Assembly (NCBI GenBank): GCA_964016885.1
Contig: CAXHJY010001056.1
Coordinates: forward strand, 1 to 24,198
Length of the DNA: 24,198 nt
Source: Eledone cirrhosa
Lineage: Eukaryota
Direction of reading: 5' to 3'
Positions 1,052 through 24,198 of this stretch are shown here, in pieces; the stretch's first letter is position 1, and each line of letters opens with the position of its first letter. The translations under genes were made by a program, and so were the position numbers. The notes beneath the pieces were generated by a model. It worked only from the letters and a program-made list of their open reading frames with translations, made no database searches and had not been told where the DNA came from.

Positions 1052-2008
1052 ATGGACTGCATGCAGGAAAAATGGGAAAAATGTGAAATCAGGAGTCAGC
1101 GAAACTGGTCGAAGATTGAACTAGCGGTTTTGATCAAGGGGTGGACTATGGCTGATGGGTCTCCACCAAGCAAAAAGATGGCGGAGAACCTGAAGAGCCA
1201 TGGGTTTATGAGGACCCTGGTACAGATAAAGAGAAAAGAAATTGAGAAGGCGTATGTCCTCATAGCGCCTCATATGGCGATGCTAAGCCGTGTCCTCAGG
1301 GAGGAGAAAACCGAAGGGAGGGATGAGGAGAAGGAGAGGGAAAAGGAAGAGGAAAAAGAGGGGGAAAAGGAAAAGGAGGAGAGCACAAGCACGGACCTGA
1401 AAGAAAATGATATACCCTCCGCTACAGGCAGGGAGGGCAGGCCGGGCAACCAACAAGCTAAGGGCAAAGGTGAAAAGCGAAATCACCTTCCGAAGGAGAA
1501 CCAAGTGCAGAGGGACCAGTGGACAACTGTTCAAAGAAAGAACAGAAAGCACCGAGACACTGGGAGCAAAAATCCCCAAGTAATGTGCAAGTTTTTCAAG
1601 AACGGGACATGCTGGCATGGAGAGACAGGGATGGGATGCAGATTCGCCCACCCTAGGTCTCGAACGAACTATGCCCATCATACTCGCGCAACATGCCCCA
1701 GCCTAAGCCGAAATAAGCCGCTCCAGAAGTATGCTGATGTCGCGCGTGCTGCACCAACAAGGAGAAGGCACGCTCATGCCGACGAGATACAGATGGCAGC
1801 AGCAGATCAGAAAAATTTTTTAGTGATGGCAGAGAAGATTGTGGGACAGCTGACCTGGCTGCATCGTCTCCAGAGCCAGGGTCATCCACACCAGCACTCG
1901 AGACCACCGCAGTTAAGGGACCCAGAGTGGCCGCCGCTGACACCAGACCAGGTGTCATACCGACAGCCATTACTGGCACCCCAAAAGTCACACCAGTGCT
2001 GCTGCTGA
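1052..2008 (+). CDS. LINE-A ORF1 protein (318 aa): N-terminal Myb/SANT-like domain, E/K-rich linker, CCCH zinc finger
   Basis: First ATG in the 707..2008 frame (MDCMQEKW). RNWSKIELAVLIKGW...GFMRTLVQIKRK resembles a Myb/SANT-like trihelix. CKFFKNGTCWHGETGMGCRFAH = C-x7-C-x8-C-x3-H. The upstream S/L/P-rich part is just the CT tract. Confidence 0.75.
   Translation: MDCMQEKWEKCEIRSQRNWSKIELAVLIKGWTMADGSPPSKKMAENLKSHGFMRTLVQIKRKEIEKAYVLIAPHMAMLSRVLREEKTEGRDEEKEREKEEEKEGEKEKEESTSTDLKENDIPSATGREGRPGNQQAKGKGEKRNHLPKENQVQRDQWTTVQRKNRKHRDTGSKNPQVMCKFFKNGTCWHGETGMGCRFAHPRSRTNYAHHTRATCPSLSRNKPLQKYADVARAAPTRRRHAHADEIQMAAADQKNFLVMAEKIVGQLTWLHRLQSQGHPHQHSRPPQLRDPEWPPLTPDQVSYRQPLLAPQKSHQCCC
1816..1822 (+). 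promoter_or_regulatory. Candidate -1 ribosomal frameshift slippery heptamer T TTT TTA (LINE-A)
   Basis: ORF1 codons AAT TTT TTA GTG (N-F-L-V). The -1 frame is stop-free from 1717 and continuous with ORF2. Confidence 0.6.
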
Positions 2009-4955
2009 ATGTCAGGGGCCTGGTGAAACTCAGCAACATGAGTAAAATTTCCTACCTGGGAGACTTAGCCATAAGCAATCAAGCACTATGCATGGCACTA
2101 ACCGAAACGCACCTGACAAGCAGTATAGCAGATGCAGAAATACATATACCGAAATATACTGTATTTCGTTCGGACAGGAAGGAGAGAACTCATGGTGGGG
2201 TTGCTCTGTATATCCGTGAAGATGTCACACCAATTGTACTGTTGACACATTCAAACTCAGTCTGTGACACACTGATAATACATATGAAGCAACTACAGAC
2301 GGTAATATGTGTCACATATCGGCCGCCCGATGCCCCCAGTCATGAGGGTAAATTTGAGGATAGCCTAAGTAGGATAGAAGAGGTCCTTGACAAACTGGAC
2401 CAGGGTCTCAACATCCTACTGCTGGGAGACTTCAACCTACCAAAGGTCAAATGGCCTGAGGGCCACCTCCTCCCTGGAATGACGTCAATAGAACAGAGAC
2501 AGACGGAATCCCTGCTGGCCCTCACACACAGGCTGTTCATGGAGCAAGCAATACTCCTCCCAACAAGAGGCGAAAATGTCCTGGACCTCTGTTTTACAAA
2601 CAACGAAGTGCTCATCCACAATGTAAAGGTGACACCAACAATTCTCTCGGATCATAACTTGGTAGAGCTAATGATATGTGGTCCAAGAGAACCAACAGAG
2701 ACAAAACCACCAAGAAGCTCCGGGACGCTATCCAGCCTTAACTTCTACGGGGCTGACTGGAAGAAGATTAAGAGTGAAATCCGGAAGCAAACATGGAGTG
2801 CAAACATCGCCACACAAGACACTAACACACAATTTCAACACTTCATGACAACAATACACACCATATGCAAAAAGTGTGTCCCGGAGAAAGAGGCAAACAG
2901 ACACAAAAATCTTATTCCCAGAGATAGGAAAATCCTTATGAGACGTAGAACTAAACTCTCAAACCAGTTGAATAGAGAACAAAACCAAAACAAGAAGGAA
3001 TCCTATTTGAAACGTGCACTACTTGACACCGAGATTGCACTCAAGCTTTCACATGGGAATGAGAGGGCAAGGAAAGAGAACATGGCCATAGAAAACATTA
3101 AAACAAACCCTAAGGCCTTCTTTAAATTTGCAAAAGAAACTGCCTCAGTACACTGCAAGATTGGACCACTCTTCCACACGGACGGTTCATTAACCGAAAA
3201 TCCCCAAGAGATATGTGAAATACTGAACGAACAGTACAAAAGTGTCTTCACATGTCCACTGAGGCACATGCAAATAACGAAGCCAGAGGAGTTCTTTGAT
3301 GCCACAACACTACATCAAGAAATGGCAACCATCAACCACATAGACATAACGGAAGAGGATGTGGTGTACGCCATTGATGAAATTAGAACAGACTCGGCTG
3401 CTGGACCTGATGGATTCCCAGCAGTTCTCCTAAAAATATGTAAGCGGGCCTTAGCAACTCCACTGAAGATGCTCTTCAGAAGCTCCTTGGCTAGCGGTGT
3501 ACTACCCAGGGAGCTGAAAGAAGGCACAATATGCCCTATCCATAAAGGAGGTAGTAGAGCAGAGGCCAAGAACTATAGGCCAGTCTCCCTGACGTCGCAT
3601 ATCAGTAAGGTCATGGAGCGAGTCGTCAGAAAGAAACTAATCACTTTCCTCGAAGAAAATGACTGCCTGACTAGCATGCAACATGGCTTCCGCCCAGGAA
3701 GAAGCTGCCTTACACAGCTGCTACATCACTACGACTGGGTACTGAGACAGCTACTAGACAGCTCACATGTAGACGTGATATATCTTGACTTTGCGAAGGC
3801 CTTTGACAAGGTCGACCACGGAATGATATGTCACAAACTACACGGACTCGGCATACTGGAAAAGTAGGTGAGTGGCTGCATGGCTTCCTGAGGGACAGAA
3901 GCCAGGCAGTCGCAGCAAATGGGGCCCTCTCGAGGGAAACACCGATAACAAGTGGGGTGCCTCAGGGGACAGTCCTGGGACCACTACTGTTTTTGGTGGC
4001 TCTCTCGGACATGCCCTCTGTGGTGCATGCAACAACATCCCTCACTAGCTATGCTGATGACACTAAGGTAGCACAGGCAATCAAAAACCCGGCTGACGCT
4101 GCCCTCTTACAGCAGGATCTGGATGCCATATACAGATGGGCGGAAGAAAACAACATGCAGTTTAATGCTGGCAAATTCCAAGCCCTACAATACAAACCTG
4201 CAAACACAAACACAAATATAGCGGAACACAGCTACACAGGACCAGGAGGGACCGATATCCCCGTGTCAAAATCGATACGAGACCTGGGCATAGACATGAG
4301 CGATGATGCATCTTTTTCTTCACACATCATGAAGGTGGCGACAGCATGTAGACGATTCGCTGGCTGGATCTTGAGGACTTTCCTTACAAGAGATCGAAAC
4401 ACCATGTTGACACTGTGGAGGACTTTTGTCCTAAGCCGCCTGGACTACTGCTCCCAGCTGTGGTCACCCCATAGTGTCAAACTAACCACAGAGCTTGAGG
4501 CAATCCAGCGAAGCTACACCAAGAGGATTGCCAAGATGAGGGAGACAAGCTACTGGGAGAGGCTGAAGGAACTGAACCTCTACTCCTTGGAGCGAAGACG
4601 GGAGAGATACGCAGTGATCTACATGTGGAAAATCCTGGAGGGACTAGCACCAAACTTTGGCATTGGGAGCTGGACCAACCGTCGAACAGGACGTCACTGT
4701 GTGGTGCCAAAGGTCCCGTCTTCCACATCTAGAATAAGGAGCAGGTATTGCAATAGCCTGGGATTCAAGGGCCCTCAACTCTTCAACAGGCTGCCGAGGC
4801 ATCTGCGAGACTTGCATGACGTGGAGGTGGATGTCTTTAAGAAACATCTCGACAGGATCCGGGATGAGCCCACAGCAAGACACGAGGGAAACCTAAGGGC
4901 AGCAGCAACAAACTCCCTCCTACACCAGTGGCCAACCTATACAGGCTGGAGATAA
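1816..4955 (+). CDS. LINE-A ORF2: apurinic-type endonuclease plus reverse transcriptase, with one 1-bp frameshift at ~3855
   Basis: APE motifs LLNVRGL, ALTETHL, YRPP, LLGDFN, LDL, SDH; RT motifs [32 protein letters not shown]. ORFs 1927..3867 and 3828..4955 join if one A is restored (GGC ATA [A]CT GGA AAA GTA = G-I-T-G-K-V). Confidence 0.92.
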
Positions 4956-5021
4956 AATGTGTAGCAACAAGGGCGGTGCCCCAGCATGGCCTCAGCCGGA
5001 TGGCTGAAACAGGTAAAAGAG

Positions 5022-5128
5022 TATACATATATATATATATATACATATACACATATATACACATATATACACATATATACATATATATACACATATATAC
5101 ATATATATACACATATATACATATATAT

Positions 5129-5175
<47 letters not shown>

Positions 5176-5272
5176 CATATACATATATATATATACATAT
5201 ACATATATATATATACATATACATATATATATATATATACATATACATATACATATATATATATACATATAC

Positions 5273-5327
<55 letters not shown>

Positions 5328-5334
5328 CATATAC

Positions 5335-5389
<55 letters not shown>

Positions 5390-5398
5390 CATATACAT

Positions 5399-5433
<35 letters not shown>

Positions 5434-5686
5434 TATATACATATATATATATACATATATATATACATATATATATATACATATACATATACATATATAC
5501 ATATACATATATATATACATATATATATATACATATACATATATATATACATATATATATATACATATACATATATATATACATATATATATACATATAT
5601 ATATATACATATACATATATATATATACATATACATATATATATATATACATATATATATATACATATACATATATATATATATAC

Positions 5687-5721
<35 letters not shown>

Positions 5722-6012
5722 CATATACATACATATACATATATATATATACATATACATATATATATACATATATATATATACATATACATATACATAT
5801 ATACATATACATATATATACATATATATATATACATATACATATATATATACATATATATATATACATATACATATATATATACATATACATATACATAT
5901 ACATATATATATATACATATATATACATATATATATATACATATACATATATATATATACATACATATATATATATACATATACATATATATATATACAT
6001 ATATACATATAC

Positions 6013-6046
<34 letters not shown>

Positions 6047-6112
6047 ATATATATAAGTTTCTTTATACATATATATATATATATACACATATATATATAT
6101 ACATATATATAC

Positions 6113-6207
<95 letters not shown>

Positions 6208-6370
6208 CATATATACATATATATACATATATATATATACATATATATACATATATATATATATACACATATATATACACATATATATATATACATATAT
6301 ATACACATATATATATATATACATATATACATATATATACATATATATACACATATATATACATATATAC

Positions 6371-6401
<31 letters not shown>

Positions 6402-6608
6402 CATATATATATATACATATATACATATATATATACATATACATATATATACATATACATATATATACATATACATATATATATATATACATATACATAT
6501 ATATACATATATATACATATACATACATATACATATGTATATATATACATATACATATATATACATATACATATATATACACATATATATACATATACAT
6601 ATATATAC

Positions 6609-6639
<31 letters not shown>

Positions 6640-6642
6640 TAT

Positions 6643-6673
<31 letters not shown>

Positions 6674-6704
6674 TACATATATATATACATATATATATAT
6701 ATAC

Positions 6705-6737
<33 letters not shown>

Positions 6738-6738
6738 C

Positions 6739-6797
<59 letters not shown>

Positions 6798-6815
6798 CAT
6801 ATATATATACATATA

Positions 6816-6847
<32 letters not shown>

Positions 6848-6914
6848 CATATATATATACATATATATATACATATATATATACATATATATATACATAT
6901 ATATATATATATAC

Positions 6915-6945
<31 letters not shown>

Positions 6946-7050
6946 CATATATATATACACATATATATATACATATATATATATATATACATATATATAT
7001 ACATATATACATATATATATACATATATATATATATACATATATATATAC

Positions 7051-7081
<31 letters not shown>

Positions 7082-7082
7082 C

Positions 7083-7133
<51 letters not shown>

Positions 7134-7134
7134 C

Positions 7135-7165
<31 letters not shown>

Positions 7166-7190
7166 CATATATATATACATATATATATAC

Positions 7191-7221
<31 letters not shown>

Positions 7222-7294
7222 CATATATATATACATATATATATACATATATATATATATATACATATATATATACATATATATATATATATAC

Positions 7295-7325
<31 letters not shown>

Positions 7326-7326
7326 C

Positions 7327-7377
<51 letters not shown>

Positions 7378-7378
7378 C

Positions 7379-7451
<73 letters not shown>

Positions 7452-7676
7452 TATATACATATGCACATATATATATACATATATATATACATATATATAT
7501 ATACATATATATATACATATATATATACATATATATATACATATATATATACATATATATATACATATATATATACACATATATATATACATATATATAT
7601 ACATATATATATACATATATATATACATATATATATACATATATATATACATATATATATATACATATATATATAC

Positions 7677-7735
<59 letters not shown>

Positions 7736-7751
7736 CATATATATAATATAC

Positions 7752-7800
<49 letters not shown>

Positions 7801-7832
7801 CATATATATACATATACATATATATAATATAC

Positions 7833-7867
<35 letters not shown>

Positions 7868-8104
7868 CATATATATATACATATATATACATATACATAT
7901 ATATACATATACATATATATACATATATATATATACATATATATACATATATATATATACATATATATATATACATATATATATATACATATATATATAT
8001 ACATATATATATATACATATATATATATACATATACATATATATATATATACATATATATATATACATATATATATATATACATATATATATATACATAT
8101 ACAC

Positions 8105-8135
<31 letters not shown>

Positions 8136-8258
8136 CATATACATATATATATATATACATATATATATATACATATACATATATATATATATACATATAT
8201 ATATATACATATACATATACATATATATATACATATATATATATACATATACATATAC

Positions 8259-8290
<32 letters not shown>
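5022..8290. repeat. Compound (TA)n(CA) microsatellite array, ~3.3 kb
   Basis: TA runs punctuated by CA on the + strand; a 9-nt non-repeat interruption at 6056-6064. Confidence 0.98.
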
Positions 8291-8292
<2 letters not shown>

Positions 8293-8897
8293 TGTTATAT
8301 TTGGGGAGGGTCATATTTGCGTAATATTGCCAGAATTAATAACAGAACACACTCACTGTTTGGTTGGTTTTCGCTTCTCGCTGTCTTTTATATATATATA
8401 TCTGCGATCTAACTTACTCGGTCCTCAATGTTGCCATTGACTGACCGGCGGTCAAAAATAATACAGATACAATATAGACAAACACATATATATATAGTTT
8501 ACATAAATCTTTCGTTGCACATCTGCAACATCGTCAGTGGTGTTATATTCATTGTTCCTCCTGTTGTGTTGTATGTCTACGCCATTTTTTTGTTCAGTCA
8601 ATGGCGTAGACATACAACACAACAGGAGGAACAATGAATATAACACCACTGACGATGTTGCAGATGTGCAACGAAAGATTTATGTAAACTATATATATAT
8701 GTGTTTGTCTATATTGTATCTGTATTATTTTTGACCGCCGGTCAGTCAATGGCAACATTGAGGACCGAGTAAGTTAGATCGCAGATATATATATATAAAA
8801 GACAGCGAGAAGCGAAAACCAACCAAACAGTGAGTGTGTTCTGTTATTAATTCTGGCAATATTACGCAAATATGAGCCTCCCCAAATATAACAATAT
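8289..8897. repeat. Long near-perfect palindrome: 298-bp arms (8289-8586 / 8600-8897), 13-nt loop
   Basis: Paired positions sum to 17186 at both ends, so no net indel; one mismatch seen (G8310/G8876); loop tttttgttcagtc. Confidence 0.95.
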
Positions 8898-8938
8898 CTG
8901 TTTCGACACACGATTTCATATAAAAAACCTCGCAAAAC

Positions 8939-10957
<2,019 letters not shown>

Positions 10958-11233
10958 ATACTTAACTAAAACACACACACACGAACTTGTGAGTACATTT
11001 TCCTTTAACTACAAATTATTATTATATACTTTCGTCTTTTCATTAACTTAATTAATTTCAAATAACCAGAATATACATATATATATATATATATACTCAT
11101 ATTTATATATATACGCTTCTCACTCACACACAAGAAAAACAAAAAACAAAAATAAATCAAAAATAAATTAAAAAAAAAAAAATATATATATATTGAAATA
11201 CTTAACTAAAACACACACACACTCAAAACTAGA

Positions 11234-12424
11234 ATGGCTAACCAGCAAAAATCCAAACAGAACTGGTCTGATAATGAAATCGACATTCTAATAAACACAT
11301 GGCATTGCCTTTCCCAAACAGAAAATATAGATGCTTCATCTCTGAACGACATTGCTAAACGTACAGTTCAATTTTTGAAAACTCGATCTGAACAACAGAT
11401 TCAAAATAAATTAAAGCAAATCGAAATTGCTTTTAAATTAATCAATAAACATTTGGATAAACTACGGTGTGTTTTCTCTTCGAATGCTGTCCAGCAGCAG
11501 CAACAACAACAACAGCAGCTACAACAGCAACAACAACAACAACAGCAGCTACAACAGCAACAACAACAACAGCTACAACAACAACATCAACAACAGCTAC
11601 AACAACAACATCAACAACAGCAACAACAACAGTGTGAACCACTCCTTGATTCATCAACAATGGCCGATCTACTAAATGAAACTATTGACCCCCCAGTAGC
11701 CTCTGTCTCACAGCATGAAACGCCACATCCTTTCTCTGGCCCAGCAGTCCAATCATCACCACTGCCAACATCTCTGCCTACTACTACTACTACTACTACA
11801 ACATTTTTGTCTACTGCTATGTCAAGGAATTTACCTTCTAATACCAGAACAAGAACTCTCCCTCCCACAGTCCACAAAGGTCGTCAAATCCTACCCAAAC
11901 CATCATCTACACCTCTCACAACACCCACACCCATATACCCACCCACTCGAAACCCCATCATTTGCCGCTACTCTCTACGCTATAGAATATGTACGGATAG
12001 TGGCTGCAAATTCACCCATTTACCTAGGACAAAACGATCTATCCCCACAAACAGCCACCACCATAATACATACTCTAATTTAACACCAACACAACCACCA
12101 ATAACTCAAACAAGGAATCCACAAATCTGCCGTTTTTCCCTGCGAGACAGATTGTGTTTAGACCGGGATTGTCCCTTTACCCATCTCCCGGGGACCCGTC
12201 GGATAAATGAAAATAAAATTAAAAATAAAAGCAAAAACAAAAACCATAACCTACATAAAAATAACCACTACCACAGTCACCAACAGTCTTCTAAACAGGA
12301 AACTTCTTCCTCTTTTTTAGCCATAATGAATCTGGCAAAAGAACTGGAAAAAAACATTCGAGCTATCACCCAGCACCACCCTCCACTATCACCCCACTGC
12401 ACAAACTCCCATTGCTGCCATTAA
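11234..12424 (+). CDS. LINE-B ORF1 protein (396 aa): Myb/SANT-like N-terminus, polyQ and P/T/S linker, two CCCH zinc fingers
   Basis: QNWSDNEIDILINTW...RSEQQIQNKLKQI; CRYSLRYRICTDSGCKFTH and CRFSLRDRLCLDRDCPFTH (both C-x8-C-x4-C-x3-H). Confidence 0.82.
   Translation: MANQQKSKQNWSDNEIDILINTWHCLSQTENIDASSLNDIAKRTVQFLKTRSEQQIQNKLKQIEIAFKLINKHLDKLRCVFSSNAVQQQQQQQQQLQQQQQQQQQLQQQQQQQLQQQHQQQLQQQHQQQQQQQCEPLLDSSTMADLLNETIDPPVASVSQHETPHPFSGPAVQSSPLPTSLPTTTTTTTTFLSTAMSRNLPSNTRTRTLPPTVHKGRQILPKPSSTPLTTPTPIYPPTRNPIICRYSLRYRICTDSGCKFTHLPRTKRSIPTNSHHHNTYSNLTPTQPPITQTRNPQICRFSLRDRLCLDRDCPFTHLPGTRRINENKIKNKSKNKNHNLHKNNHYHSHQQSSKQETSSSFLAIMNLAKELEKNIRAITQHHPPLSPHCTNSHCCH
11492..11632 (+). repeat. (CAA/CAG)n repeat encoding polyglutamine within ORF1
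   Basis: cagcagcagcaacaacaa... in the ORF1 frame. Confidence 0.9.
12313..12319 (+). promoter_or_regulatory. Candidate -1 ribosomal frameshift slippery heptamer T TTT TTA (LINE-B)
   Basis: ORF1 codons TCT TTT TTA GCC (S-F-L-A). The -1 frame opens after TAA at 12292-12294 and runs without a stop into ORF2. Confidence 0.62.
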
Positions 12425-15400
12425 CAAACAAACAAATTAACAACACACCAAAACAATTAAAACCATCCACTCTCGCCTCTACATTTTTGCTTAACGCCCA
12501 AGGCATCAGCCCTTCCACCAATACTCAAAAATGGAAGATCAAATTCCTGGAGGACTGGATTGATGTCCATCCAAACCACATCCCTTTCTTCGTCCTCACT
12601 GAAACCCATCTCAGTAACCTCCACTTGGAAGCCGAGGTGAAAGTGAAAAATTTCAAAGCCATCCGTGCTGATCGCGCTGGCAGAAGAAAGGGCGGAACTG
12701 CCATTTATGTCCATAATTCTTTCTCAACAGAGGCTATGAACATATTCACTAATGGATACTGTGAGGCAGTCACTGTATTCAGTCAAACCAACAACCTATT
12801 AGTAGTTGGGCTCTATAGGCCACCCCAAACGCCTGTACCATGCTTCAAGGAATGCCTCAACAGCATAAAGTGTTTCATCCAAGAGTGTCACCCTGACAAC
12901 ATCTTAATGATGGGGGACTTCAACCTCCCCGGAGTTGACTGGTCCACAAACACCCTGCCACCAGGTTCTTCTGCCTCAACCTCTGACAGGGAAGCTGTGG
13001 AATCGCTTCTTGACTTCATGGATGATTTCTTCCTATCCCAACTAGTGCTCGAACCAACGAGGTGCCACAAAAACGTCCTAGACTTAATTTTCAGCAATCA
13101 CACTGACAATATCCACAATATTGCAGTGGAGAAAACTCTACTCTCTGATCATGACATGGTTCTCTGTGATCTGAGATTCCACCGTCCAATATACAAACCC
13201 AATGTCATTTCTCCTGTCCATCCGTTTGACGCTATGGATTTCCACAATGCAAACTGGAAGCGATCAGTCATGATCTTGCACATGTCGACTGGTCCTTCAC
13301 GCACACTCATACACCCACTAACATCAAAAAGTCCTGGCAGACATTTGTGGACACTGTTACAAACATATGTGCTAAACACACCCCATTAAGAACTATAAAC
13401 AAATCTAAGAGCAGAATCCCTAGAAATAGAAAAACGCTCATCAGAAAAATTAAGAGAACGAACAAAAAAATCAACAATCTGAAATACTGTCAGCAGCAAC
13501 ACATCAACTTGACTGCCATTTCATCACTAGAGATTAAAAAACATAACCTCCAAAACAACATAATGTCCCTCATCAACAATCAGAGAAGAGCTGAAGAGGC
13601 CTGGGCCATTGAGAAGATCAAACTCAATCCCAAAGTGTTCTTTTCATTTGCAAAAAAACACAAAATCACTGGCTCTACTGTTGGCCCTCTAATTGATGAA
13701 AATGGCACTCTTCAAGACAATGCTAAAACTATGGGTGAGATACTGCAGAAACAATACTGCTCTGTTTTCAGCAATCCTGATATGGCCGATCTGGGCTGTA
13801 TCGGCGATGTTACTCCCCATTACACCTTATCGGACATAACGTTTGGCGCCCCTGATGTCTTGGCGGCAATAAAGGAAATCAAGCATAATTCAGCAGTAGG
13901 TCCCGATAGGTTCCCTGCTTGTGTCTTGAAGGCGTGTCAACACCAACTTGCTTCTCCTCTTGCCAATCTGTGGCGGAACTCACTGGATGCTGGATATGTG
14001 CCAGAAAACCTTCTATCCCAGTCTGTTGTCCCAGTTTTCAAAAAGGGAAACAAATCCCTTGCCGTGAATTACCGTCCAATCTCACTCACCTCTCATATCA
14101 TTAAGGTATTTGAGCGAGTGGTGAGATCGCGAATGACCCACTTCCTTGAGAGTAACAATATGCTGAACTCCAACCAGCATGGATTCCGTAATGGAAGGGA
14201 TTGCCTGACGCAACTACTGCATCACTTTGATGACATTTTGAGAGCCTTGGGAGAGGGTTCCAACACTGATGTTATCTACCTTGATTTCAGCAAGGCCTTT
14301 GACAGGGTTGATCATAACATTCTACTGAGAAAGCTGTCCAATATTGGTGTCACTGGAAAGCTGCTGCAGTGGATCAAGAGCTTCCTGTCAAACAGAACCC
14401 AACATGTTGTAGTTGAGGGAGTCAAATCAAGCCCAGCCAAAGTCAGTAGTGGAGTCCCACAAGGCACTGTGTTGGGCCCACTTCTCTTCATCATCTATAT
14501 TAATGACATCACTGACATCATCAAACACAGCAACATTAAAATTTTCGCTGATGATTCCAAGCTCCAAAAGGTCATCAATGGCGTGGATGACCGGATAAGC
14601 CTTCAGTCAGACCTACTGGCTGTTACCCAATGGGCAGAAAAGAACAACATGTTACTGAACGAAGACAAATTCGAACTGATCCACTTTGGAAAAGAGGATG
14701 CTCTGAAACTCCCGTACTCCCTTCCCTCCGGGGAAACTCTCGTGGCATCTAACAACATCAGAGACTTGGGAGTAACCGTGGACAGCAACATAAGCTGGAC
14801 CACGCATATAAGCAGCAAAGTTGACATGGCCCGCAGAATGTGTTCCTGGATCCTCAGAACCTTCCAGTCGAGAGATTCCCGCACCATTATCCTTCTCTTC
14901 TCTACTTTCGCCCGACCACACCTTGAATACTGTTGTCCACTGTGGTCTCCCCACACGAAACAAAGTATCATGAAACTTGAAGCTCCTCAAAGGGCAATCA
15001 CGAAAAAGATAGATGGCATGTCAGACCTTGACTACTGGGGTCGATTGGAAAACCTGAAACTTTACTCACTCCAACGTCGCCGTGAGCGTTATATTATCTG
15101 CATGATGTGGAAAATGTTCCATCATCACTGCCCAAATGATGTTGGCATCGCCTTCAAGATACACCCAAGGCTTGGGCCCCGTGCTATCCGTCCCATTCAA
15201 AAATCTAAATCGCAACTCATAACAACAATACGGCACAATTATTTCACCTCAATCGGCCCTGCTCTCTTCAACATCACACCAGGACACGTCAAAACAGAAA
15301 CTGACCACACAAAATTCAAGAAGTCTTTGGACAAATTCCTCCAAGTAATCCCGGACAAACCACCCACACCCGGATATGTCTCCGCAAACAGTAATTCTCT

Positions 15401-15431
15401 TCTCGAATGGGCCATGGTGCCCAAATTCTGA
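12313..15431 (+). CDS. LINE-B ORF2: APE endonuclease plus reverse transcriptase, with one 1-bp frameshift at ~13256
   Basis: FLLNAQG, VLTETHL, YRPP, MGDFN, LDL, SDH; [32 protein letters not shown]. ORFs 12412..13389 and 13347..15431 join if one G is restored (AAC TGG [G]AA GCG ATC = N-W-E-A-I). Confidence 0.92.
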
Positions 15432-15506
15432 ATTGAAAGACTTCGCCAGGTGGTGCTATTAAGTTAGACATGGCCTGGGCCAATACTGGCCAAAACATTT
15501 CAAAGT

Positions 15507-15567
15507 TATATATATATACATACATATACATATATACATACATACATATATATACATACATATATAC

Positions 15568-15633
<66 letters not shown>

Positions 15634-15652
15634 ACATATATATACATACATA

Positions 15653-15693
<41 letters not shown>

Positions 15694-15744
15694 ACATACA
15701 TATATATACATATATATATATACATACATATATATATATACATA

Positions 15745-15799
<55 letters not shown>

Positions 15800-15909
15800 A
15801 CATATATATATATACATACATACATATATATACATATATACATATATATACATATATACATATATATACATATATATACATATATACATATATATATATA
15901 CATACATAC

Positions 15910-15958
<49 letters not shown>

Positions 15959-17035
15959 CATACATATATATATATACATACATATATATATATACATACA
16001 TATATATATATACATACATATATATATATACATATATATATATACATACATATATATATATACATATATATATATACATACATATATATATATACATACA
16101 TATATATATATACATACATATATATATATATACATACATATATATATACATATATATATATACATATATATATATACATATATATATATACATATATATA
16201 TATACATATATATATATACATATATATACATATATATATATATACATATATATACATATATATACATATACATACATATATATACATATATATACATATA
16301 CATACATATATATACATATATATACATATATATACATATATATACATATATATACATATATATATATATACATATATATACATATATATATATACATATA
16401 TATACATATATATATACATATATATATACATATATATATACATATATATACATATATATATATACATATATATATATATACATATATATACATATATATA
16501 TATATACATATATATACATATATATATATATATACATATATATACATATATATATATATACATATATATACATATATATATATATACATATATATACATA
16601 TATATATATATACATATATATACATATATATATATATACATATATATACATATATATATATATACATATATATACATATATATATATATACATATATATA
16701 TACATATATATGTATATATATATACATATATACATATATATGTATATATATATACATATATACATATATATGTATATATATATACATATATAGGTATATA
16801 TATATACATATATATGTATATATATATACATATATACGTATATATATATATATATATACGTATATATATATACATATATACGTATATATATATACATATA
16901 TACGTATATATATATACATATATACGTATATATATACATATATACGTATATATATATACATATATACGTATATATATATATATATATACATATACGTATA
17001 TATATATATATACATATACGTATATATATATACAT
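15507..17035. repeat. Compound (TA)n(CA) microsatellite array with TACA, TATG and TACG variant patches
   Basis: Direct reading; CG-containing units are confined to ~16837-17020. Confidence 0.98.
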
Positions 17036-18609
17036 AAGGCATCTGGGTCTGTAGGTCACACTATAACCACACGTATCGTTAACCAGGTAATACTAGAGGG
17101 GGCCATACCAAAAGATTGGTGCAGTAGCATCATTGTCAACTTCTACAAAGGTAAAGGCGATGCACTAGATAGAGGAAACTATAGAGGTATAAAGTTGATG
17201 GACCAGGTCATGAAAGTAACAGAAAGAGTTATAGCACAGCTGATTAGGGACCGGGTGAATATAGACGAGATGCAATTTGGGTTTGTACCAGGAAAAGGCA
17301 CCACTGATGCGCTCTTCCTTGTGAGGCAATTACAGGAAAAGTACCTAGCTAAAAGTAAGCCACTCTACTTGGCATTGTCGACCTTGAGAAAGCCTTTGAC
17401 AGAGTTCCACGTGCAGTAATCTGGTGGGCTCTTAGAAAACTAGGAGTAGATGAATGGCTTGTGAAAGCGGTACAAGCCATGTATAGGGGAGCAGTCAGCA
17501 AAGTTAGGATTGGCAATGAGTATAGCGAGGAATTTAGCGTACAGGTTGGGGTCCACCAGGGCTCTGTTCTTAGCCCTCTCCTGTTCATCATAGTCCTGCA
17601 GGCAATAACGGAGGAGTTTAAGACCGGATGCCCATGGGAACTCCTGTATGCTGATGACCTCGCACTCATAGCTGAATCTATGGTAGAACTAGAGAATAAA
17701 TTCCAAACCTGGAAGCAGGGACTAGAGAGAAAGGGCCTCAAAGTCAACATGACAAAGACTAAGGTCCTTATAAGTAGACGAGAAAACAGAACCCAGATCC
17801 CCTCAGGGAAATGGCCTTGCTCAGTATGTAGGAAAGGTGTAGGTAGGAACTCCATTCTTTGCCCCAAATGCAAACAATGGGTACACAAGAGATGTAGCGG
17901 GATCTCAGGAAGCTTAATTAAGAATGTAGGATTCACATGCAGCAGCTGTGCTGAAACAGCAAGCAAACAGCCAAAGGAAACAAGTACCACCAATCTCTGG
18001 GAGGGCCCTGTAGAAACAGTAGACAGCTTCTGCTACCTAGGTGACCGAATTAGCAACGGAGGTGGGTGCTCAGAAAGTACAATAACTAGGGTAAGAACGG
18101 GATGGAAGAAGTTTAGGGAACTACTACCACTGCTAGCTGCAAAAGGCTTCTCCCTCAGAATGAAAGGCAGACTGTATGATGCGTGTATCCGAACAGCGAT
18201 GTTGCATGGTAGTGAGACCTGGGCGCTGAAGGTGGAAGACTTACGTAGATTAGAGAGAAACGAAGCCTGCATGCTCCGATGGATGTGTAACAGTAATATA
18301 CGTGAACGACAAAGCATAAAGGAATTGAGAGAGAGACTGAGCATAAGAGGAATCAAATGCTGCGTGCAGGAGAGGCGGTTACGCTGGTATGGACATGTGA
18401 TGCGTATGAAGGATGACAGCTGCATAAAAAGGTGCAGAGCACTAGAAGTTGATGGAAACCGCGGAGTGGGGAGACCCAAGATGACTTGGGATGAGGTGAT
18501 AAAAGCCGACCTTACCCAACTACACCTCTCAAAGTCAATGACACACGACCGTGACTTCTGGCGTCACGCAGTAATACAGGGTACCCGACCTCCCATGGGT
18601 ACATGCTGA
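17036..18609 (+). pseudogene. Truncated RTE reverse transcriptase with a 1-bp deletion at ~17375
   Basis: Starts mid-ORF (KASGSVGH). ggcattgtcgac versus ggcatttgtcgac in copy 2 breaks [10 protein letters not shown]. Confidence 0.88.
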
Positions 18610-22280: not shown

Positions 22281-24198
22281 ATCATCATCACCGTTTTACG
22301 TCCGTTCTTCCACGCTAGCATGGGTTAGACGGGTTGTCCTGTTGTGGGCAGTGTCTGGTCGGCTGACCATGCCTTGCTCATACAGGAACTGATCTGGCTT
22401 GATTTCTACAGCTGGATGCCCTTCCTAACACCAACCTCATTTACAGTGAGTGCTGGGTACTTTTTCGTGGCGCCTACACGTCCACTTTACAGTGTAGGCT
22501 GGGTGCTTTTTTGCCGTGGCACCTCCACGGCCACCTTGCGGTGGAGGGGGGGGGGGGGCATATTGTTTATATGCTTCAGCATGTACCCATGGGAGGTCGG
22601 GTACCCTGTATTACTGCGTGACGCCAGAAGTCACGGTCGTGTGTCATTGACTTTGAGAGGTGTAGTTGGGTAAGGTCGGCTTTTATCACCTCATCCCAAG
22701 TCATCTTGGGTCTCCCCACTCCGCGGTTTCCATCAACTTCTAGTGCTCTGCACCTTTTTATGCAGCTGTCATCCTTCATACGCATCACATGTCCATACCA
22801 GCGTAACCGCCTCTCCTGCACGCAGCATTTGATTCCTCTTATGCTCAGTCTCTCTCTCAATTCCTTTATGCTTTGTCGTTCACGTATATTACTGTTACAC
22901 ATCCATCGGAGCATGCAGGCTTCGTTTCTCTCTAATCTACGTAAGTCTTCCACCTTCAGCGCCCAGGTCTCACTACCATGCAACATCGCTGTTCGGATAC
23001 ACGCATCATACAGTCTGCCTTTCATTCTGAGGGAGAAGCCTTTTGCAGCTAGCAGTGGTAGTAGTTCCCTAAACTTCTTCCATCCCGTTCTTACCCTAGT
23101 TATTGTACTTTCTGAGCACCCACCTCCGTTGCTAATTCGGTCACCTAGGTAGCAGAAGCTGTCTACTGTTTCTACAGGGCCCTCCCAGAGATTGGTGGTA
23201 CTTGTTTCCTGTGGCTGTTTGCTTGCTGTTTCAGCACAGCTGCTGCATGTGAATCCTACATTCTTAATTAAGCTTCCTGAGATCCCGCTACATCTCTTGT
23301 GTACCCATTGTTTGCATTTGGGGCAGAGAATGGAGTTTCTACCTACACCTTTCCTACATACTGAGCAAGGCCATTTCCCTGAGGGGATCTGGGTTCTGTT
23401 TTCTCGTCTACTTACAAGGACCTTAGTCTTTGTCATGTTGACTTTGAGGCCCTTTCTCTCTAGTCCCTGCTTCCAGGTTTGGAATTTATTCTCTAGTTCT
23501 ACCATAGATTCAGCTATGAGTGCGAGGTCATCAGCATACAGGAGTTCCCATGGGCATCCGGTCTTAAACTCCTCTGTTATTGCCTGCAGGACTATGATGA
23601 ACAGGAGAGGGCTAAGAACAGAGCCCTGGTGGACCCCAACCTGTACGCTAAATTCCTCGCTATACTCATTGCCAATCCTAACTTTGCTGACTGCTCCCCT
23701 ATACATGGCTTGTACCGCTTTCACAAGCCATTCATCTACTCCTAGTTTTCTAAGAGCCCACCAGATTACTGCACGTGGAACTCTGTCAAAGGCTTTCTCA
23801 AGGTCGACAAATGCCAAGTAGAGTGGCTTACTTTTAGCTAGGTACTTTTCCTGTAATTGCCTCACAAGGAAGAGGGCATCAGTGGTGCCTTTCCCTGGTA
23901 CAAACCCAAATTGCATCTCGTCTATATTCACCCGGTCCCTAATCAGCTGTGCTATAACTCTTTCTGTTACTTTCATGACCTGGTCCATCAACTTTATACC
24001 TCTATAGTTTCCTCTATCTAGTGCATCGCCTTTACCTTTGTAGCAGTTGACAATGATGCTACTGCACCAATCTTTTGGTATGGCCCCCTCTAGTATTACC
24101 TGGTTAACGATACGTGTGGTTATAGTGTGACCTACAGACCCAGATGCCTTCAGCATCTCGGCAGCTATACCCGATGGACCGGTTGCCTTCCCTATCTT
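22281..24198 (-). mobile_element. RTE-clade LINE, copy 2, continuing beyond the window edge
   Basis: Reverse complement of copy 1 over 22281-24150 with about a dozen differences; short (GAT)n tail at 22281-22290. Confidence 0.94.
22576..24198 (-). CDS. RTE reverse transcriptase (partial, uninterrupted) containing a PHD finger
   Basis: The frame is open to the window edge (KIGKATGPSGIAAEMLK...), so the ATG at 24156 is internal; [14 protein letters not shown] and FCYLG are present. Confidence 0.92.
   Translation of the reverse strand, partial: KIGKATGPSGIAAEMLKASGSVGHTITTRIVNQVILEGAIPKDWCSSIIVNCYKGKGDALDRGNYRGIKLMDQVMKVTERVIAQLIRDRVNIDEMQFGFVPGKGTTDALFLVRQLQEKYLAKSKPLYLAFVDLEKAFDRVPRAVIWWALRKLGVDEWLVKAVQAMYRGAVSKVRIGNEYSEEFSVQVGVHQGSVLSPLLFIIVLQAITEEFKTGCPWELLYADDLALIAESMVELENKFQTWKQGLERKGLKVNMTKTKVLVSRRENRTQIPSGKWPCSVCRKGVGRNSILCPKCKQWVHKRCSGISGSLIKNVGFTCSSCAETASKQPQETSTTNLWEGPVETVDSFCYLGDRISNGGGCSESTITRVRTGWKKFRELLPLLAAKGFSLRMKGRLYDACIRTAMLHGSETWALKVEDLRRLERNEACMLRWMCNSNIRERQSIKELRERLSIRGIKCCVQERRLRWYGHVMRMKDDSCIKRCRALEVDGNRGVGRPKMTWDEVIKADLTQLHLSKSMTHDRDFWRHAVIQGTRPPMGTC

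Follow-up and report, generated by a model that had tools for sequence, protein, structure and literature searches.

The window analysed here, a 24,198-nt stretch of Eledone cirrhosa DNA (contig CAXHJY010001056.1), carries two long interspersed nuclear elements (LINEs), LINE-A (~1052-4955) and LINE-B (11234-15431), together with two copies of a third element, all set among long (TA)n arrays. Both LINEs are retrotransposons that lack long terminal repeats (non-LTR), of the apurinic/apyrimidinic endonuclease (APE) type, as judged from an open reading frame (ORF) 2 in which APE is followed by reverse transcriptase (RT), an ORF1 located upstream, and the scattered presence of 5'-truncated copies. 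Our subject is the overlap of the two frames, where the sequence of LINE-A, and of the clade of elements related to it, very probably directs programmed -1 ribosomal frameshifting at a U UUU UUA heptamer to give an ORF1-ORF2 fusion.

Frames and proposed slip sites of LINE-A and LINE-B

On the forward strand, the LINE-A ORF1 (1052-2008; ATG at 1052 and stop TGA at 2006-2008) is found in the ORF list, aligns with the other ORF1s of the clade, and encodes 318 residues arranged as a charged N-terminal part, one CCCH-type zinc finger (zf-CCCH match with E=0.022, under the curated cut-off), an N-F-L motif, and a Gln/Pro/His-rich tail. As the first-pass annotation of this DNA had it, ORF1 reads AAT TTT TTA, which places the slippery heptamer T TTT TTA (1816-1822) in ORF1 phase, and ORF2 occupies the -1 frame relative to ORF1. 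The same annotation had the -1 frame stop-free from 1717 with an overlap of 292 nt, and this has to be corrected, since a TGA at 1735-1737, located 78 nt before the heptamer in 30/30 family copies, bounds the frame upstream. Thus, the frame is open from 1738 and overlaps ORF1 by 271 nt. From the slip site, the -1 frame continues as a Ser/Thr/Pro/Ala-rich linker (1822-2007), over which the ORF1 frame is also open, and then enters the endonuclease and reverse transcriptase of ORF2 (2005-4955; Pfam match PF03372 from 2005). The first ATG of ORF2, at 2038, does lie past the first APE motif, as had been claimed, being ten codons beyond the Asn of LLNVRGL (AAT at 2008-2010), and the G-L of NVRGL aligns to residue 17 in the chain of a solved L1 endonuclease. 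Within 1813-1822, a second word of the X XXY YYZ type, A AAT TTT (1813-1819), overlaps T TTT TTA; a common family-A variant at 1814 destroys the former and leaves the latter intact.

LINE-B, whose endonuclease shares 34% identity with that of LINE-A, is laid out in the same order on the forward strand. Its ORF1 (11234-12424) encodes 396 residues with a weak Myb/SANT-like N-terminus, poly-Gln, two CCCH-like fingers, and an S-F-L motif, and its heptamer T TTT TTA (12313-12319) is likewise in ORF1 phase, 18 nt past the stop that bounds the -1 frame. The ORF2 frame (12295-15431) again runs through a linker, APE, and RT, with the APE Asn at 12493 and the first ATG 81 codons further on. In the window copies, ORF2 of LINE-A is disrupted by gaps of 1 nt near 3854 and 12 nt near 4852, as compared with copy L193, while that of LINE-B has a 1-nt gap near 13255 against copy L032.

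Both elements are young and abundant in the host genome (3.0 Gb), in which we counted 988 candidate copies of LINE-A and 1266 of LINE-B, the top 40 matches being 99-100% identical; the exact 23-nt context of the LINE-A heptamer occurs at 154 places. An alignment of family copies, proposed in the first-pass annotation as a check on the heptamer and its phase, kept both in 30/30 fetched copies of family A and 20/20 of family B, though these top matches, at ~99% identity, hold little information on selection. Among 62 distinct family-A copies, 45 have the exact 20-nt context, while the remainder show scattered changes, some of them inside the heptamer. Because the heptamer is present in the fetched copies and an open 1076-aa ORF2 frame exists in many family-A copies, the -1 arrangement does not come from damage to the window copy. 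Three protein searches of the host genome gave back family A only, and a motif pattern gave 7 places.

Conservation of the heptamer across the clade

As a comparison set, we used the best 80 of at least 446 confirmed metagenome loci, which were fetched by two endonuclease (APE) motifs only, and built quick trees with Shimodaira-Hasegawa-like approximate likelihood ratio test (SH-aLRT) support only. In the APE tree (79 rows), 32 metagenome loci group with LINE-A and LINE-B at an SH-aLRT of 99, and three loci too short for this tree (L151, L167, and L169) were scored as non-clade. The clade is recovered in the RT tree as well (45 rows; SH-aLRT of 99), where a protein named from Argonauta hians joins it. 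A search of viral contigs gave no matches.

Of the 34 clade members, the contig stops short of the site in three and the junction is absent from one, which leaves 30 for evaluation. An exact T TTT TTA in ORF1 phase is found in 26 of these 30 (LINE-A, LINE-B, and 24 metagenome relatives). Up to 800 nt upstream of the APE match, TTTTTTA occurs in phases 0/1/2 at 26/0/0 clade loci, as against 2/2/1 for the other 48 loci and 0/0/1 for 34 further distant loci (genome contigs used as background). Moreover, the slip-site Phe is encoded by TTT in 30/30 and the Leu by TTA in 27/29 members, and the codon preceding the Phe ends in T in 29/30, across several amino acids. For invariant control residues of ORF2, by comparison, TTT encodes the GDFN Phe in 7/28 and TTA the TETxL Leu in 6/30. 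The median pairwise APE identity in the clade is 35%, and the exact heptamer is present in 18 of the 20 clusters formed at 60% identity; conserved across so diverged a clade, the heptamer stands above chance. Its nucleotide conservation exceeds what the encoded amino acids need. The -1 frameshift proposed in the first-pass annotation is thus upheld by the same in-phase heptamer in LINE-B and 24 relatives, and by codon conservation far above that of the controls.

The stop that bounds the -1 frame lies at a median of 12 nt (0-108 nt) 5' of the heptamer, and in two loci at 0 nt, so that a start further upstream could not fit. Between the heptamer and the APE Asn, the -1 frame stays open for 177-585 nt as a Ser/Thr/Pro linker, and the ORF1 and ORF2 frames overlap by 130-580 nt in the clade. 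In 18 of the 25 loci scored (also in LINE-A and LINE-B), the first in-frame AUG comes past the APE Asn; in the other seven it stands at scattered positions, and there is no conserved AUG ahead of the endonuclease in these 25. In Zorro3, retrotransposition fell to <5% when a conserved Asn early in the endonuclease was mutated (PMC1965478), and we infer that this Asn is equivalent to the APE Asn here. The N-termini of predicted ORF2 proteins are uninformative, because any start codon is rendered as Met by the gene caller. What is observed directly is the heptamer and the phase in which it stands, its clade-wide retention, a -1 frame that is open as far as the endonuclease, and the absence of any conserved AUG. 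Outside the clade, the ORF2 frame of loci L137, L145, L148, and L178 has an A-rich heptamer, in phase, close to where it begins, and a long ORF1 frame lies above it in at least L145 and L148; these are possibly separate cases of frameshifting.

The ORF1 proteins of the clade follow a common plan, in which CCCH-type fingers are followed by a short G-T-x-R motif and, across a variable linker, by F-L and a hydrophobic helix. A profile search with ORF1 returned 2,078 clusters (50% identity) at E<=0.001, and within the top 150 relatives the finger motif is present in 141, with F-L in 141/141 of these. In line with selection for the heptamer, residues lacking a U-ending codon (K/E/Q/M/W) precede F-L in 2/141, versus 25-44/141 at the five earlier positions. 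Weak PHD matches, all under the curated cut-off, were obtained for 5 of 14 related ORF1s that were scanned. In a 921-aa ORF1 of the clade (P0322, P0341), the CCCH part and a weak PHD match are preceded by a domain of the ubiquitin C-terminal hydrolase type (PF00443, E 4.6e-38).

Points against frameshifting and rival explanations

Several observations weigh against frameshifting, beginning with structure 3' of the heptamer. The stem suggested in the first-pass annotation (1851-1860 with 1874-1884, extended by 1840-1844 with 1886-1890) is indeed present in the predicted minimum-energy fold, but its role as a stimulator is not supported, for this predicted stem-loop (1840-1890, forward strand) is 17 nt from the heptamer and at shuffle background (z of -0.07, +0.75, and -0.85 in three windows). 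LINE-B is without a significant 3' stem when its folding is compared with shuffles. The consensus 3' structure of two subgroup alignments has 0 pairs, no systematic pseudoknot search having been made, and a common stem appeared only among four loci that were chosen afterwards, with one two-sided change in 10 pairs. As for the site itself, 4 of the 30 deviate, namely G TTT TTA, T TTT TTG, T TTT CTG, and, in a decayed copy, T TTT TCA; these one-base variants were placed by eye at matching codons. At the protein level, the test of residues before F-L in the 141 ORF1 relatives is partly circular because its profile was built from F-L-bearing sequences, some of which the 141 may include, and a helix N-cap preference could explain part of the bias. 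Finally, a G follows the heptamer in 23/26 loci, which also makes a splice-acceptor-like TAG word, and in 12/25 loci the ORF1 stop shares nucleotides with the Leu-Asn codons of APE, where a restart is conceivable.

In favour of frameshifting, the mean folding z of the 26 loci reaches its minimum (-1.01 ± 0.25 at +8) immediately 3' of the site and is ~0 further off, and hairpins occur 6-9 nt 3' of the heptamer in several clade relatives. On these predicted folds, 3' stimulators appear to be lineage-specific, with LINE-A and LINE-B likely relying mostly on the heptamer alone. U UUU UUA is described as slipping in a minimal 25-nt context without a stem, while a stem lifts slippage to 5-10% (PMC4373837). 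In LINE-A, we also spotted by eye a putative 5-bp pairing of the loop (1866-1870) with downstream sequence (1900-1904).

The TAG word bears on splicing, in which TTTTTTAG would serve as a 3' splice site, with ORF2 supplied by the spliced mRNA; the opening of the -1 frame near the site also suits an exon start. However, the AG right after the T run is absent from 3 of the 26 exact sites and from variants L106 and L134, the T run is without any C in the 26 loci although splice acceptors tolerate C, and pyrimidines are not enriched in the 15 nt upstream (0.40 versus a background of 0.45). Moreover, given that LINE proteins act in cis (PMC3708506), spliced transcripts ought to return to the genome as new insertions, and yet a pattern search of the host genome for the presumed exon start lacking the T run gave 0 places, versus 154 exact unspliced ones. 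Those 5'-short copies that we examined are truncations into microsatellite, other sequence, or N. No joint at 1822-1824 appears in four contig sets of unspecified type from a single study, a result that carries no weight on splicing or on expression. Arguments from genomic copies, both here and for an extra T, assume cis action in the clade, and the pattern counts are of exact matches only. Splicing, the alternative named in the first-pass annotation, is therefore disfavoured, and we consider it very unlikely.

Otherwise, ORF2 could arise by termination-reinitiation close to the ORF1 stop without an AUG, the route put forward for mammalian L1, and the heptamer would then serve another purpose. 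LINE-A is one of the 12 loci in which the ORF1 stop overlaps the Leu-Asn codons, it has in-frame GTG and CTG codons just upstream, and AUG-independent initiation is thought likely for mammalian L1 (PMC5009743). Against this, the ORF1 stop lies 8-71 nt upstream in the remaining 13 loci, and its occurrence at the Leu-Asn position arises because these codons spell TAA/TGA in the +1 frame. The stop-start AUG overlap of the SART1 type is absent from both LINE-A and LINE-B, where the first ORF2 ATG is, respectively, 30 nt past the ORF1 stop (within APE) and >300 nt past it. Reinitiation would also leave unexplained the invariant heptamer and a -1 frame that is open over the 177-585 nt to the Asn, and to us it seems highly improbable.

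Amino-acid constraint alone is harder still to credit. In this explanation, F-L in ORF1 and F-F in ORF2 would together force T TTT TTR, and by the genetic code such dual coding does fix six of the seven letters; F-L, moreover, opens the conserved hydrophobic helix of ORF1. However, F-F is constrained only if the -1 frame is translated there, and in four loci a stop lies 0-3 nt upstream, so that entry into the -1 frame must be at the site itself. With F-L alone, the heptamer is expected at p ~0.005-0.06 per locus, and the explanation is already largely refuted. As for slippage of RNA polymerase on the T run, by which an added U would give some transcripts a fused frame, the homopolymer at the frame junction and a +1 insertion at the site in 2/62 family-A copies would suit it, but its likelihood is close to nil, as the run is only six T, the A in seventh place is near-invariant, the codon phase is fixed, and the extra-U RNAs, which with cis action would be those copied back, have their exact one-T-longer context at 0 places versus 154. 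In 11 copies with unusually long open frames, eight are 5' truncations starting in or downstream of the site and three carry deletions, with no T insertion at the site in any of them.

With programmed -1 frameshifting, our preferred reading, the majority of ribosomes would read through the heptamer in LINE-A to make the 318-aa ORF1 protein (ORF1p), which ends in the hydrophobic helix and a Gln/Pro tail, while a minority would slip with tRNA-Phe and tRNA-Leu into the transframe peptide QKNF(L/F)SDGRED, whose earlier prediction does follow from the sequence. The resulting fusion of ~1,300 aa would join the ORF1 N-terminus and CCCH finger through a flexible linker to APE and RT, and so the RNA-binding finger would be placed on the enzyme. 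As in Gag-Pol, slippage would set a low ratio of enzyme to ORF1p. Slippage, the product ratio, and the function of the fusion are what we infer. On a wider scale and with more reserve, we lean towards the view that there is a large clade of animal LINEs, as yet without a name (~2,000 ORF1 clusters at 50% identity), which makes its enzyme in Gag-Pol style via a near-invariant U UUU UUA, with the C-terminal helix of the CCCH-finger ORF1 swapped for the endonuclease-RT and the 3' stimulator re-invented in each lineage.

Genomic setting, known systems and implications

The element ends of LINE-A and LINE-B pass into (TA)n arrays, and (TA)n microsatellite occupies positions 1-200, 5020-10960, and 15500-17050 of the window. 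This type of microsatellite directly flanks both LINEs and most of the examined 5'-truncated family-A copies (L080, L092, L098, and L190-L198), which suggests a target preference for insertion into it. Three of the family-A copies (L092, L098, and L194), on separate contigs, are 5'-truncated at nearly one position (window-equivalent 1926-1928) and abut microsatellite, and their common truncation point may be a truncation hot spot or the result of later duplication. Despite the 34% endonuclease identity, the 3' untranslated regions of LINE-A (4970-5015) and LINE-B (15445-15500) have a common motif order, GG-GGTGC ... CATGGCCT ... TGGC ... AAAC, possibly a conserved stem-loop for recognition by RT. 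The third element lies on the minus strand as two near-identical copies (17359-18609 and 22576-24198) that encode an RT with an internal cysteine cluster; by its motifs, we take it to be RTE-like.

Among known systems, the gag-pol junction of human immunodeficiency virus type 1 (HIV-1) offers the identical U UUU UUA, even in an N-F-L context and with G usually following, and likewise has a structural protein upstream, an enzyme in the -1 frame, and a 0 frame that runs past the site (PMC4373837, PMC5009743). In contrast, the clade here is of non-LTR retrotransposons with APE and RT, no protease seen, and no single conserved stem-loop. Closer in kind are TRE5-A and TRE3-A of Dictyostelium, two-ORF APE-RT LINEs that are stated to need a -1 frameshift for ORF2, though they are listed there as members of the L1 clade that target tRNA genes, and the review passage gives neither a slippery site nor an assay (PMC5911963). 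Unlike these, the clade here has a CCCH-finger ORF1 of its own and a near-invariant heptamer over many diverged lineages; the copies examined here lie in (TA)n microsatellite.

SART1 and mammalian L1 also have a bicistronic LINE RNA with ORF2 made from an internal position. However, SART1 uses a UAAUG stop-start overlap (PMC10275272, PMC2699510, PMC3708506), and in mammalian L1 the ORFs are non-overlapping and initiation is unusual (PMC5009743), whereas here the frames overlap and there is no conserved AUG. The 2A 'StopGo' sequences of CR1, L2, Rex1, Crack, and Ingi similarly represent virus-like recoding in APE-type LINEs, but these split one frame into two products where the clade here would join two frames; the word 'frameshift' is absent from the main text of that paper (PMC3708506). 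For Paramecium LINE groups 1-2, a +1 shift or reinitiation was suggested (PMC5405496), as opposed to -1 here, and for Drosophila HeT-A a frameshift is reported inside gag in an element without RT (PMC5009743). The CR1/L2 (Jockey) group shares the APE-RT ORF2, and a bird CR1-like RT matches the clade at 34%. In our RT tree, which has an unresolved backbone and no reference set, the single named CR1-like RT falls outside the clade. We presume a placement in the CR1/L2 group from the 34% match and sequence motifs. Sections 6-7 of a survey list no CCCH-finger ORF1 type ('CCCH' having 0 occurrences; PMC4120745).

Our full-text literature search, which left most subscription journals and Repbase Reports uncovered, did not turn up any account of U UUU UUA being conserved in a LINE clade, though an earlier mention may exist, and the sections seen of a major recoding review list no slippery-site case for LINE ORF1-ORF2. 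What appears to be new is the clade-wide HIV-type signal in LINEs, a -1 frameshift for a LINE having already been stated for TRE5-A and TRE3-A (PMC5911963). On the frameshift reading, the ORF2 starts of the clade are being mis-called, and its natural U UUU UUA cassettes, which number in the dozens and differ in 3' context, would be useful for the study of frameshift stimulators. Tested cases of LINE ORF2 translation point to reinitiation; if true, the reading given here would establish a conserved -1 frameshift system within non-LTR retrotransposons. A clade that has fixed the HIV heptamer predicts a fused ORF1-ORF2 enzyme, and this would alter how the ribonucleoprotein is built.

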